Virus record (IMG/VR): IMGVR_UViG_2579779034_000001
Length of the DNA stretch: 8,848 nt
Reading direction: 5' to 3' (one strand)
From: a virus
Taxonomy: Monodnaviria > Loebvirae > Hofneiviricota > Faserviricetes > Tubulavirales > Inoviridae
The notes below the pieces were generated by a model. The model was not told where the DNA came from. It saw only the letters and a program-made list of their open reading frames with translations, and did not search any database. Made by a program: the position numbers and the translations under genes. Below, piece after piece: positions 3,552 through 8,848 of this stretch (positions are counted from its first letter, which is position 1; each line of letters opens with the position of its first letter).

Positions 3552-3638
3552 ATGGACGATGTTATTCAAATTTTGATAGCGTCTGGCATCGTTATTTCTT
3601 TTGGCCTCGGCGCGATTACTGCGGGGGTCTTTCGTTAA
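3552..3638 (+). CDS. gVII: Minor coat protein pVII-like (28 aa)
   Basis: MDDVIQILIASGIVISFGLGAITAGVFR resembles the M13 pVII C-terminal part (IQISVVLCFALGIIAGGQR). Stop overlaps the next start (TAATG). Confidence 0.7.
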   Translation: MDDVIQILIASGIVISFGLGAITAGVFR

Positions 3639-3733
3639 TGTATATCGTTTATTTCTTCGGGGCTTATACCTTTGGTTTTGCCCTTTTCTATGCGGTCGGT
3701 TCATTTAAATCATTTTCTGACCGATTAATGTAA
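3638..3733 (+). CDS. gIX: Minor coat protein pIX-like (31 aa)
   Basis: MYIVYFFGAYTFGFALFYAVGSFKSFSDRLM resembles M13 pIX (MSVLVYSFASFVLGWCLRSGITYFTRLMETSS). ATG overlaps the gVII stop. The 3509..3733 track ORF is the same frame extended upstream and is rejected. Confidence 0.72.
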   Translation: MYIVYFFGAYTFGFALFYAVGSFKSFSDRLM

Positions 3734-5699: not shown

Positions 5700-6794
5700 A
5701 TGGCGGTTTATGTAGTAACAGGCAAATTAGGCTCAGGCAAGACACTTGTTAGTGTTTCCAGAATACAGGAAAGACTTGCTAAGGGTTGTCCTGTTGCCAC
5801 TAATCTTGATCTTAAATTGCATAATATGCCTATGGTTGGGCGTTATGCGAAAAAAACGCGCGTTATTCGCATTCCTGACAAGCCTTCATTAAATGATTTA
5901 CTTGCTATTGGTACTGGGAATACATCTTACGATGAATCCCGTAATGGCCTCCTTGTACTTGATGAATGTGGTACTTGGTTTAATTCCCGCTCATGGGGTG
6001 ATAAAGACAGACAACCTGTTATTGACTGGTTTTTACATGCCAGAAAATTAGGCTGGGATATTATATTTTTGATTCAGGATATTTCGATAATGGATAAGCA
6101 AGCTCGTCTGGCGCTTGCTGAGCATGTTGTTTATTGTCGCCGTTCAGATAAATTAAACATTCCTTTTGTTGGCTCCATTATGAATTTGGTTTCAGGGGCG
6201 AGATTTTCTTTACCAAAGGTACACTTTGGCATTGTCAAATATGGTGATAATGTTAATTCAATCACTGTTGATAAATGGATATATACAGGAAAATCTCTTT
6301 ATTCTGCTTACAATACCAAACAAGCGTTCACAGATAATTATCCTCATGGCGCATTTTCGCTTTTGCCACCATTTATCACGCACGGTCAATTTTCTGTTCA
6401 CAGAGGATTTAATTATTATATGCGCCTCACTAAAATTTATTTTCGCAAATCGAACCGTCTTATATTAATGCTTTCTTTTTTGGCGCTGGGGCTTGCGTTT
6501 GGTTTCTGGCTCCAGTCTGGAAAGAATGTTGATGAAATCTCAGCTATTAAATCTGCTTATGCTGAACAGGCGAGGGCGGTAACGCCTGATTCGTCCAGTG
6601 ACTTACCCCGACTTTCTATTAATTCTTTTTCACAACTTGGCTTTGACGTTTCCGTTACGTTTGTTGATGCAAAAGGTATGAAATATCAGTATTTTGATTT
6701 GATTAAAGATGGTTATTCCGTTGATATTAAAGATGCCTGTCGTGTTGTTATTAGAAAAGGCCGTTATTTACAGACTGTTACCTGTCAGGAGTAA
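5700..6794 (+). CDS. gI: Assembly ATPase pI (Zot-like), 364 aa
   Basis: Walker A GKLGSGKT and Walker B LLVLDECG. Long near-identical stretches to M13 pI as recalled (MAVYVVTGKLGSGKTLVSV, RQPVIDWFLHARKLGWDIIFLIQD, LAEHVVYCRR). C-terminal TM segment. Confidence 0.95.
   Translation: MAVYVVTGKLGSGKTLVSVSRIQERLAKGCPVATNLDLKLHNMPMVGRYAKKTRVIRIPDKPSLNDLLAIGTGNTSYDESRNGLLVLDECGTWFNSRSWGDKDRQPVIDWFLHARKLGWDIIFLIQDISIMDKQARLALAEHVVYCRRSDKLNIPFVGSIMNLVSGARFSLPKVHFGIVKYGDNVNSITVDKWIYTGKSLYSAYNTKQAFTDNYPHGAFSLLPPFITHGQFSVHRGFNYYMRLTKIYFRKSNRLILMLSFLALGLAFGFWLQSGKNVDEISAIKSAYAEQARAVTPDSSSDLPRLSINSFSQLGFDVSVTFVDAKGMKYQYFDLIKDGYSVDIKDACRVVIRKGRYLQTVTCQE
6420..6794 (+). CDS. gXI: Putative nested pXI (in-frame internal start of gI)
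   Basis: In-frame ATG at 6420 (Met241 of pI), the same position as the M13 pXI start (MKLTKIYLKK vs MRLTKIYFRK here), followed by the TM segment. Confidence 0.45.
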   Translation: MRLTKIYFRKSNRLILMLSFLALGLAFGFWLQSGKNVDEISAIKSAYAEQARAVTPDSSSDLPRLSINSFSQLGFDVSVTFVDAKGMKYQYFDLIKDGYSVDIKDACRVVIRKGRYLQTVTCQE

Positions 6795-6801
6795 TATTAT
6801 T

Positions 6802-8067
6802 ATGCGCTCTGTTATTGTTGCTTTTTTATTTGCCTGTTCATTCTGCGTTTCTGCTGAAACTGTTAATTTAAATAATTCATCTGTTCGCTCATTTGTTCAG
6901 TGGTATTCTTCAAAAACTGGCAAGCCTGTTATTGTTAATCCTGATATTAAAGGAAACGTAACCGTATTTAATGCTGATGTTAATCCAACAAATATTGATG
7001 ATTTCTTTAAGTCTGTTCTGAATGCTAACGGTTTTGTCATGCTTTCTGGCAATCCTGCGGTAGTCTCTTTGCCGTCTAAATTACCTTCACAGATGGTTTC
7101 GGATTCCGATGATTCTGATAACCAGTCTTATGATACTTTTCCTTCTGAGCCATCTTACCAGCCAGTACCTGTAGCGCTTACGGTCAGAAATTTTAAGCTG
7201 ACAAAAGTTAGATCGTCCGATGTTCAGCAACTGATTAAAATTTATCTTGATTCTAATGGTGGTGGTAATGTCGTGGATTATCCAGGCAATAACTCGCTGA
7301 TTGTTTCTGCGCCTGACGAGCTGCTGCCGGTTCTGTCCGATTTTATCAATTCTGTGGATGTTGCCCGCGATCAGGTTCTCATTCAGTCGCTGATGTTTGA
7401 AACCAGCTTGTCTGATGGCGTTGATTTATCGTTTGCGGCAGGTTCTGCATCCGGTCATAAGGTTGCGGGGGGCTTTAATACTTCTGCACTGGGTAGCGCT
7501 CTTTCTACGGCGGGCGGTTCTTTTGGTATTTTTGATGGTAACGTGTTGGCGCTGTCTCTGCGTGCTGTCCAGAGTAATTCACGCTCTAAGGTGATTTCAA
7601 CGCCGCGTATTCTTACTCAGTCTGGTCAGACTGGTTACATTTCCGTAGGTAAGAATGTGCCGTTTATCACCGGAAAGGTAACGGGCGAATCTGCCGGGGT
7701 AAATAATCCGTTTCAGACTATCGAGCGTCATGATGTTGGTGTTTCTCTCAAGGTAACGCCTGTTGTCATGGGTAACGGGCAACTAGTTCTGACTATCGAC
7801 ACTCGTGCTGATTCAATCAGCAATGATGATCAGGCATCCGATATTATTACTAATCAGCGCCAGATTCAGACGACAGTCCAGATTAAGGATGGTCAGACGT
7901 TGTTATTGGGGGGGCTTATCGATTCATCGTTCAGCAATGCCGAGCGTTCAGTTCCAGTTATAAGTAAAATTCCTCTTATAGGCTGGATTTTCAGTAGCAA
8001 GGCAGACAGCAATGAACAGCGTATTATGTATATTTTGCTTACAGCACATATCATTCGTCCACTTTGA
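6802..8067 (+). CDS. gIV: Secretin pIV (outer-membrane export channel), 421 aa
   Basis: Signal peptide MRSVIVAFLFACSFCVSA. Strong secretin-domain similarity to M13 pIV (for example SVGKNVPFITGKVTGESAGVNNPFQTIER vs SVGQNVPFITGRVTGESANVNNPFQTIER, DGQTLLLGGL, SKIPLIG). RBS AGGAG. The upstream ATG at 6709 would overlap gI and lacks a signal peptide. Confidence 0.95.
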   Translation: MRSVIVAFLFACSFCVSAETVNLNNSSVRSFVQWYSSKTGKPVIVNPDIKGNVTVFNADVNPTNIDDFFKSVLNANGFVMLSGNPAVVSLPSKLPSQMVSDSDDSDNQSYDTFPSEPSYQPVPVALTVRNFKLTKVRSSDVQQLIKIYLDSNGGGNVVDYPGNNSLIVSAPDELLPVLSDFINSVDVARDQVLIQSLMFETSLSDGVDLSFAAGSASGHKVAGGFNTSALGSALSTAGGSFGIFDGNVLALSLRAVQSNSRSKVISTPRILTQSGQTGYISVGKNVPFITGKVTGESAGVNNPFQTIERHDVGVSLKVTPVVMGNGQLVLTIDTRADSISNDDQASDIITNQRQIQTTVQIKDGQTLLLGGLIDSSFSNAERSVPVISKIPLIGWIFSSKADSNEQRIMYILLTAHIIRPL

Positions 8068-8110
8068 TGGATAGCGGGTAGGTGCGTGAGCCCTGCTCGC
8101 TATCCATCAA
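8064..8110 (+). other. Large hairpin immediately after gIV; candidate packaging signal and/or terminator
   Basis: Perfect 13-bp inverted repeat 8064-8076 TTGATGGATAGCG with 8098-8110 CGCTATCCATCAA, 21-nt loop, overlapping the gIV stop. The Ff packaging signal hairpin lies at this position. No T tract follows. Confidence 0.45.
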
Positions 8111-8136
8111 ATGGACATTATTGATTGGGGTAACTA

Positions 8137-8445
8137 ATGGATTCTTATGGGATTTTATCTGCTCTGGCAGAACGAACGATTACAGCGGAAGAAGCAAAAA
8201 CAATGACACTTGCAGCCAGAAGTTCTTCGGCTCAGGTAAATGAAGCATCACTTGCTCTGTTACTGATTGATAATACTCTGGATGCGATCAAAGCAGCTGC
8301 CAGTGAAGGGAAAGGATACACTTTACTTCCTTCTTATGAGATTTCTGTAAAAGCCATTGATTTAGCAGAAGAATTTTTAAGGAAACAATGCGGCTATGTT
8401 ATTGATAACCAGAATGGCGTAAGGACGGTCTATTGGTTTATATGA
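8137..8445 (+). CDS. Hypothetical protein, 102 aa (accessory)
   Basis: ORF with an Ala/Leu-rich, probably helical N-terminal part; RBS-like GGGGT upstream; no recognisable motif. Confidence 0.55.
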   Translation: MDSYGILSALAERTITAEEAKTMTLAARSSSAQVNEASLALLLIDNTLDAIKAAASEGKGYTLLPSYEISVKAIDLAEEFLRKQCGYVIDNQNGVRTVYWFI

Positions 8446-8562
8446 TAACCCCGGACAATGACAAAACTTGCTTTTGTTAGTGTCAGGGGTTGGCCAAGCC
8501 GAACAATTCTGTTTTTTTAGCGTTATTGCTGATTCGGCGCGGCAGCATTACGAGGAGATAAA

Positions 8563-8796
8563 ATGCAATTTTTCACATCCAGCGATACTGTAATGTTATG
8601 TGCGAAGACCTGCGATCGCTGTGGTCGCCATGCGAAGACGGTGGTAGATGACATTGAGTTCAATGAGTTTCTGTCTGTTAATCACTTAGCTGGATACGGT
8701 TCAATTTTTGGTGACAGTAATCGCTTAAAACTGGATTTATGCCAACATTGCCTGAAAGACGTCCTGGGCCAGTGGATTACGGTCTGTGACCAATGA
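8563..8796 (+). CDS. Hypothetical Cys-rich putative zinc-ribbon protein, 77 aa (accessory)
   Basis: Strong RBS GAGGAG 5 nt upstream of the ATG. Cys pairs CDRC (residues 17-20) and CQHC (60-63) plus C13 and C75, compatible with a Cys4 zinc-binding fold. Function unknown. Confidence 0.62.
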   Translation: MQFFTSSDTVMLCAKTCDRCGRHAKTVVDDIEFNEFLSVNHLAGYGSIFGDSNRLKLDLCQHCLKDVLGQWITVCDQ

Positions 8797-8831
8797 CGGC
8801 ACCGGTAACGCCAGTTCCCGCCATCCTTACC

Positions 8832-8848
8832 ATTGGTGCGCATAATGT
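8832..8848 (+). other. Start of the right-junction dif site (XerC arm), truncated by the window end
   Basis: ATTGGTGCGCATAATGT is identical to 1-17. GGTGCGCATAA-TGT is the beginning of the canonical dif core. Confidence 0.7.

Follow-up and report, generated by a model that had tools for sequence, protein, structure and literature searches.

What is the role of the long hairpin that overlaps the end of gene IV (gIV) in a filamentous phage related to IKe and I2-2? The question is raised by a stretch of 8,848 nucleotides (nt) from the IMG/VR record IMGVR_UViG_2579779034_000001 (Inoviridae), here called the window. An earlier note, made from the letters alone, had reported an inverted repeat at 8064–8110, over the gIV stop codon, and had placed it where the Ff phages carry their packaging (morphogenetic) signal. 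We consider it likely that the full hairpin, at 8057–8116, is the signal that initiates assembly in this phage, a member of the UPΦ group, and that the signal of IKe and I2-2 is its ortholog. The elements concerned are as follows.

8057..8116, + strand: full hairpin, the proposed packaging (morphogenetic) signal (from folds and the covariance model)
8065..8067, + strand: gIV stop codon TGA, within the 5' arm of the hairpin (from the list of open reading frames, ORFs)
8077..8097, + strand: conserved apex GGTAGG-T-GC-GTGA-GC-CCTGCT, with the invariant T8079·G8095 wobble and the T8083 bulge (from alignments)
8075..8084, + strand: CGGGT-A-GGTG on the ascending limb, the Ff signal motif; the window reads CGGGTAGGTG

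Structure of the hairpin and its conservation

On folding, the 60 nt of 8057–8116 form a hairpin of 27 pairs with a GTGA loop, one bulged C and one bulged T; it begins 8 nt ahead of the gIV stop. The outer helix has five pairs (8057–8061/8112–8116), with C8062 bulged above it. The main helix has 20 pairs (8063–8082/8092–8111), two of them wobbles, G8077·T8097 and T8079·G8095. At the top, T8083 is bulged, GC 8084–8085 is paired with GC 8090–8091, and GTGA 8086–8089 is unpaired. The inverted repeat at 8064–8110 exists as the earlier note described it: 8064–8076 (TTGATGGATAGCG) is perfectly complementary to 8098–8110 (CGCTATCCATCAA), and to this 13-bp stem T8063–A8111 adds a fourteenth pair. The loop of 21 nt, on the other hand, was a misreading, as it is mostly paired and the real loop comprises 4 nt within a 27-bp hairpin. 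Similarly, the stem was right to be described as overlapping the gIV stop, but it does not start inside the stop codon, beginning one base earlier. As a whole, 8057–8116 is a long imperfect (+)-strand hairpin of the size looked for in a packaging signal of this kind (about 20 or more pairs, 50–80 nt).

The fold is far above the chance level. The folding energy as single-stranded DNA (ssDNA), a calculation proposed in the earlier note, is −24.5 kcal/mol, compared with −6.6 ± 2.0 for shuffled sequences (z = −8.9), and none of the 200 shuffles was as good. The RNA fold has −46.4 kcal/mol (z = −10.2). Among all 80-nt segments of both strands (mean −5.7, sd 3.1) the hairpin is one of the two strongest folds, the second being a terminator-like hairpin at 33–72.

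Relatives were gathered by pIV, the gIV product, from genome and viral collections, and the DNA around each gIV stop was folded. The earlier note had held that absence from related phages would speak against the hairpin; in fact it is present in each of the 14 distinct relatives whose pIV reaches 70% identity, as a structure of 51–80 nt and 21–32 pairs starting 4–20 nt before the gIV stop. This family of 14 includes IKe (L104) and I2-2 (L102). A covariance model built from seven sequences, with only the (+)-strand matches used, yields one match per genome, always over the gIV stop. The score in the window is 73.7 bits at 8059–8116 (+), versus 29.7 bits for the reverse strand. Thus there is a single copy per genome, situated at the end of gIV.

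The family alignment contains 11 distinct sequences. In it, 92.8% of the cells are paired, versus 33–46% when the partners are slid, the former value being somewhat inflated since the alignment was fitted to the structure of the model. Both sides are changed in 13/22 pairs of the lower stem, the seven apex pairs are invariant, and the observed covariation was reached by 0/500 shuffles. Compensating changes are exemplified by GGATAGCG/CGCTATCC in the window and GGCTGGCG/CGCCAGCC in a relative (L091), which makes two double changes. The apex common to the IKe/I2-2/UPΦ family in the alignments is GGTAGG-T-GC-GNNA-GC-CCTGC, and the lower stem varies. An 18-base apex motif has 16 matches in 2.9 million viral contigs. 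Fifteen of these belong to the IKe/I2-2/UPΦ family, one per contig; the remaining one (L145) falls within the coding sequence of an unrelated contig of high GC content and was rejected as a chance match. In one of the sequences compared (L101, 3476–3531) the apex GCGAAGC replaces GC-GNNA-GC. The sequence d(GCGAAGC) is known to form a DNA mini-hairpin of unusual stability, as would suit a role in ssDNA.

The IKe record X02139 labels nt 6141–6196 'stem loop structure pot. transcription termination, morphogenetic signal', and a 2023 preprint (Yeh et al., bioRxiv 10.1101/2023.12.30.573655) gives 6141–6197 as the IKe packaging signal. Since the gIV stop of IKe is at 6149–6151, within this stem-loop, the latter corresponds to the window hairpin; by sequence comparison, with the apex common and the stem covarying, the window hairpin is homologous to a structure already labelled 'morphogenetic signal'. 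The counterparts in IKe (X02139 / NC_002014, 6141–6196/7) and I2-2 (L102, 2264–2321) occupy the same place over the gIV stop. They have the same apex, T bulge and T·G wobble, a similar size (the range of 51–80 nt and 21–32 pairs given above) and the same partner proteins. They differ from the window in the sequence of the lower stem, with compensating changes, and the IKe stem is less regular. The surroundings differ as well: in IKe and I2-2 the hairpin is followed by the replication origins, whereas in the window it is followed by the genes h1 and h2, the phage attachment site (attP) and three reverse genes.

In more distant relatives (Xenorhabdus bakwenae, Photorhabdus, the If1 group and Ff) a long hairpin is situated in the same place and has a different sequence. 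Relatives from the Halomonadaceae (pIV 40–44% identical) are not informative here: the next gene overlaps, and gIV is not followed by a hairpin. A search of the complete window against Rfam 15 (E ≤ 1) yields no match.

The family alignment is asymmetric with respect to the strand. G·T or T·G stands in 27 cells and A·C or C·A in one; with the count limited to variable pairs, the numbers are 16 and 1. In each of the 14 members the fold of the (+) strand is more stable than that of the (−) strand, by 3.4–8.8 kcal/mol, and the (+) strand is also the more stable one in f1 (folded as an 86-nt excerpt) and If1. Given the excess of G·T and the higher stability of the (+) strand, selection seems to act on the single-stranded form of (+) sense, and not on the duplex or the (−) strand.

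A candidate packaging signal and its presumed partners

The homology to the IKe stem-loop, the covariation, the single copy, the fixed place over the gIV stop and the (+)-strand asymmetry together argue for a packaging signal, and in this respect the suggestion of the earlier note, based on the Ff position, is supported. We infer the packaging activity, the protein contacts and the location in the virion by analogy with Ff. Rolling-circle replication would free the viral (+) strand, and the ssDNA-binding protein pV would cover it, leaving the self-paired hairpin exposed. The C-termini of pVII and pIX would then engage the hairpin at the pI complex in the inner membrane, so that assembly would begin at the hairpin and the filament would leave through the pIV secretin with the hairpin at its leading tip. 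What is recognized is probably the conserved apex, including its T bulge and T·G wobble; length and stability probably come from the covarying lower stem.

The proteins required by this scheme (pVII, pIX, pI) are encoded in the window.

3552..3638, + strand: gVII, tip protein, presumed partner of the signal (Pfam PF19978 Inovirus_G7P_2, E = 2.7e-11)
3638..3733, + strand: gIX candidate, 31 amino acids (aa), ...GSFKSFSDRLM, tip protein, presumed partner of the signal (from comparison of small ORFs with IKe, I2-2 and relatives)
5700..6794, + strand: gI, Zot-like assembly ATPase (by annotation; 63–66% identical to pI of IKe and I2-2)
6802..8067, + strand: gIV, secretin, last gene of the conserved assembly module (RefSeq annotation)

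The 13 C-terminal residues of pVII (SFGLGAITAGVFR) are identical to those of IKe, and the gIX candidate is conserved in IKe, I2-2 and relatives. The gIV product is 71–73% identical to pIV of IKe and I2-2 and 51% identical to pIV of f1. In cryo-electron microscopy papers on the phages f1 and M13, the signal is located at the pVII/pIX cap, and the C-terminal Arg of pVII is implicated. At the sequence level, a conserved recognition pair would be expected to show just this, an apex and pVII C-termini that are both invariant.

The Ff signal, according to a passage of the preprint that quotes Russel & Model 1989 (bioRxiv 10.1101/2023.12.30.573655), has, on its ascending limb, CGGGT with GGTG shortly after it. 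This arrangement is found at 8075–8084 of the window, and f1 reads GGCGGGTGTGGTGG / CGGGTGTGGTG there (L009, a vector-contaminated record). Hairpin A of the Ff phages (f1/M13/fd; L009) resembles the window hairpin in being long and imperfect, in belonging to the viral strand and in its overlap with the gIV stop; G·T wobbles are likewise numerous, and the (+) strand is the more stable one. However, no similarity can be aligned past the short motif, and the Ff apex, TTACGC-GCA-GCGTGA, resembles that of the If1 group, unlike that of the IKe/UPΦ family. The Ff hairpin is also longer than that of the window, about 78 nt. In the If1 group (L107–L114, L012) the apex is CCCTGC-GCA-GCGGGG, and an apex of the form GCGCAGCG (stem-GCA-stem) is common to this group and Ff (L009). 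This suggests two types of signal, If1/Ff and IKe/UPΦ, within these related phages. A different kind is known from the Xanthomonas phages φLf-UK and φLf2, whose signals have stems of 7–8 bp, act in either orientation, need specific loop bases and are mostly located within the replication gene (bioRxiv 10.1101/2023.12.30.573655). Like the window phage, these are chromosome-integrating inoviruses with a packaging hairpin; unlike theirs, the window hairpin is of the long Ff/IKe type and is situated after gIV.

Several points weigh against the assignment, in addition to the inflated pairing fraction mentioned above. A relative from Xenorhabdus (L006) has no strong hairpin after gIV. The annotation of IKe dates from 1985 and may rest largely on the analogy with Ff. 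Moreover, the strand asymmetry fits viral ssDNA and mRNA equally well, the two having the same sequence, and hence the covariation and the G·T asymmetry do not tell whether the role is one in DNA or in RNA.

The earlier note had also taken the hairpin for the boundary between the conserved core and the cargo, and the comparison of genomes agrees with that. The nucleotide similarity to I2-2 spans gI through gIV and ends at 8105, inside the 3' arm of the hairpin; relatives with pIV 93–97% identical diverge directly past the stem; and in most of these relatives h1 and h2 were not detected in the DNA collected. Since the similarity to I2-2 stops and the relatives diverge here, the conserved assembly module ends with the hairpin, and the variable cargo starts from about 8117. 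The features that follow are:

8137..8445, + strand: h1, first cargo gene, 102 aa, starting 21 nt past the hairpin; no family match
8563..8796, + strand: h2, second cargo gene, 77 aa, with CxxC...CxxC (from the ORF list)
8830..8848, continuing at 1–37, + strand: dif-like attP, the window being one unit of a tandem prophage

In the integrating UPΦ lineage the signal has stayed with the assembly module, and the cargo and the attachment site are located between the signal and gII.

A packaging signal is expected in such a phage and comes as no surprise, being the counterpart of the known IKe/I2-2 signal; the current understanding of filamentous phages is unchanged. What is gained is a defined UPΦ signal, which allows phagemid/helper tests of assembly, and an alignment in which the apex (T bulge, T·G wobble, GNNA loop) is invariant and the stem covaries freely. 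These apex features are a concrete target for mutagenesis in the study of signal recognition by pVII/pIX in the Lineavirus group.

Alternative roles considered: transcription, replication and recombination

The first alternative is that the hairpin acts mainly in the messenger RNA (mRNA) and not in packaging, as a 3' stabilizer of the gI–gIV transcript, a partial terminator or attenuator before h1/h2, or an RNase III site. The RNA stem is indeed very stable, with the energy of −46.4 kcal/mol and z = −10.2 given above, the (+)-strand asymmetry agrees with RNA no less than with ssDNA, and the IKe record labels the homologue also as 'pot. transcription termination'. The tail after the stem, ATTATTGA, is moderately T-rich, but it has four T in eight positions and no run, and it is not conserved, the T content being 1–5 in 8 across the 14 relatives. 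Hence there is no T/U tract right after a compact G+C-rich stem, as an intrinsic terminator would have, and the terminator scan of the window does not list the hairpin. Nor does it seem to end a transcription unit: h1 starts at 8137, 21 nt past the stem, with its own Shine–Dalgarno sequence, and the promoter scan predicts none between the stem and h1, so that transcription would have to pass through the hairpin. Further, a terminator has no need of an invariant apex containing a bulge and a wobble, and the non-integrating IKe and I2-2 retain the hairpin though no gene comes after it there. For Ff, a review describes the terminator of the intergenic region as rho-dependent. The terminator role mentioned in the earlier note is therefore not supported, given the lack of a conserved T-tract and the position of h1 without a predicted promoter; a conserved role as an intrinsic terminator is unlikely, some partial effect in RNA is conceivable, and a role mainly in mRNA we consider improbable.

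A combination is somewhat easier to accept, though still doubtful: the same element could serve as the start of assembly in ssDNA and, in mRNA, as a stem of −46 kcal/mol that throttles or processes the read-through from gIV to h1/h2, and it could at the same time be a fixed breakpoint for swapping of the cargo. As the apex and the pVII C-terminus are the same as in IKe and I2-2, a corollary would be that the genome of a resident UPΦ prophage could be packaged and mobilized by superinfecting phages of the IKe or I2-2 type, and vice versa.

Replication offers another candidate function. It is very unlikely that the hairpin is the (−)-strand origin, at which RNA polymerase or the primosome would start the second strand on the viral ssDNA. 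It is a long hairpin of the viral strand in a phage whose (−) origin has not been located, and in Ff and IKe the hairpins of the (−) origin are close to the packaging signal. However, the (−)-origin stem-loops of IKe are annotated apart, at 6333–6385 and 6410–6438, downstream of the homologue of our hairpin, and no similarity was found between the window hairpin and this IKe region (6333–6438). By eye, the stem has no recognizable pair resembling −35 and −10 boxes, and a scan for duplex promoters lists none at 8057–8116. A better candidate for the (−)-strand origin is at 8447–8543, where two adjacent hairpins fill the spacer between h1 and h2 (fold z = −3.7). The first of these two hairpins is kept in a deletion variant of the prophage (L099).

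As for the (+) origin, a search for the nick-site motif of IKe/I2-2 (…AGTGGACTCTTGTT…) gave nothing convincing in the window, including 1999–2167. The segment 1769–1801, which is 91% identical to I2-2 (L137) 2666–2699, was considered for this role and rejected, as the nick-site motif is located elsewhere in I2-2 and IKe. In both phages this 34-nt hairpin is situated right after the stop of a small reverse ORF upstream of gII, and it looks like a conserved terminator of this small gene rather than an origin.

Finally, a palindrome acting in the duplex, either bound by a dimeric protein or used as a recombination site of the XerCD/attP type, is hardly credible: the sequence is nearly palindromic and sits where the gene modules of relatives differ, but the 27 G·T against 1 A·C cells imply that only one strand is under selection, the covariance model gives 73.7 bits for the forward strand and 29.7 for the reverse, XerC/XerD binding arms were found not in the hairpin but in the dif-like attP at 8830–8848 + 1–37, and the non-integrating IKe and I2-2 also have the hairpin.

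The UPΦ phage unit and its cargo

The preferred assignment, a packaging signal of the IKe/I2-2 kind, has to be seen in the context of the phage that carries it. The window matches E. coli chromosomes at 99% identity or more, and at least 80% of it is present in 46 genomes. It adjoins hipBA, which is the dif locus. In strain AZ184 the sequence forms a tandem repeat; UM146 has a single prophage copy, whose right end restores the canonical dif, GGTGCGCATAATGTATATTATGTTAAAT. As the window starts and ends within a dif-like site, it represents exactly one phage unit of 8,848 nt. The dif-like attP, at 3–37 and 8832–8848, reads GGTGCGCATAA-TGTGCGACTCG-TTATGTTGAAA. Its XerC arm does not differ from that of E. 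coli dif, whereas the spacer has 11 nt in place of 6 and the XerD-like arm matches at 9/11 positions.

The gene order is three reverse ORFs, gII, gV, gVII, gIX, gVIII, gIII, gVI, gI and gIV, followed by the hairpin, two small forward genes and the attachment site. The window is thus an inovirus of the UPΦ group, a dif-integrating relative of IKe and I2-2. The group was described as Lineavirus relatives of IKe/I2-2 that integrate at dif, with GGGES repeats in g3p, reverse ORFs after the dif site and the genes h1 and h2, of unknown function, in the region that is intergenic in IKe (PMC7307601, Virus Evol 2020). The window fits this published description (dif-integrated, tandem in some strains, GGGES repeats). 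It differs from the reference UPφ901 in the size of the unit (8,848 bp versus 7,560 bp) and in the reverse-strand cargo. The text of PMC7307601 contains no 'hairpin', and 'packaging' appears only once, in co-packaging; new infections by UPΦ prophages were not achieved in that study. We find UPΦ prophages at dif in 51/5,426 complete E. coli genomes (about 1%). In one genome, NZ_CP092647.1 (E. coli EC5502), the phage matches at 16 separate places, pointing to a long tandem array or to several insertions.

The prophage also occurs in two variants with deletions (L128/L134; L099). In one of them most of gIV is missing and the hairpin is kept; in the other, the hairpin and h1 are gone together with the 3' end of gIV. 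Having lost the hairpin, the second variant should be unable to package itself.

Some of the records collected (L003, L009, L012, L022) apparently contain phage or vector DNA under unlikely organism names. A contig of a metagenome-assembled genome of 'Candidatus Nanosynbacter' encodes pIV 100% identical to that of the window phage, a single-cell contig under the name 'SAR11' consists of f1/M13 vector sequence, a contig of 'Actinomadura monticuli' resembles If1, and a 'Paenibacillus tengchongensis' contig has a UPΦ-like gIV.

No significant Pfam or NCBIfam family was found for h1, h2 and the three reverse-strand cargo ORFs (103–1206, 1308–1727 and 1816–1998, all −). By eye, the 139-aa reverse ORF resembles a multi-pass membrane protein. 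The reverse ORFs vary among E. coli strains, and UM146 has a different set. Between the 367-aa and 139-aa reverse ORFs, at 1274–1302, there is a perfect 12-bp palindrome, ATATTACCCTAG-GTTAA-CTAGGGTAATAT, which could be an operator or a terminator. The strong G+C-rich hairpin at 33–72 (GGCCGCTGCG...CGCAGCGGCC, about −25 kcal/mol as DNA) is located just past the 367-aa reverse ORF and is followed by TTTT on the − strand. It is probably the terminator of this ORF, and it may act in both directions.

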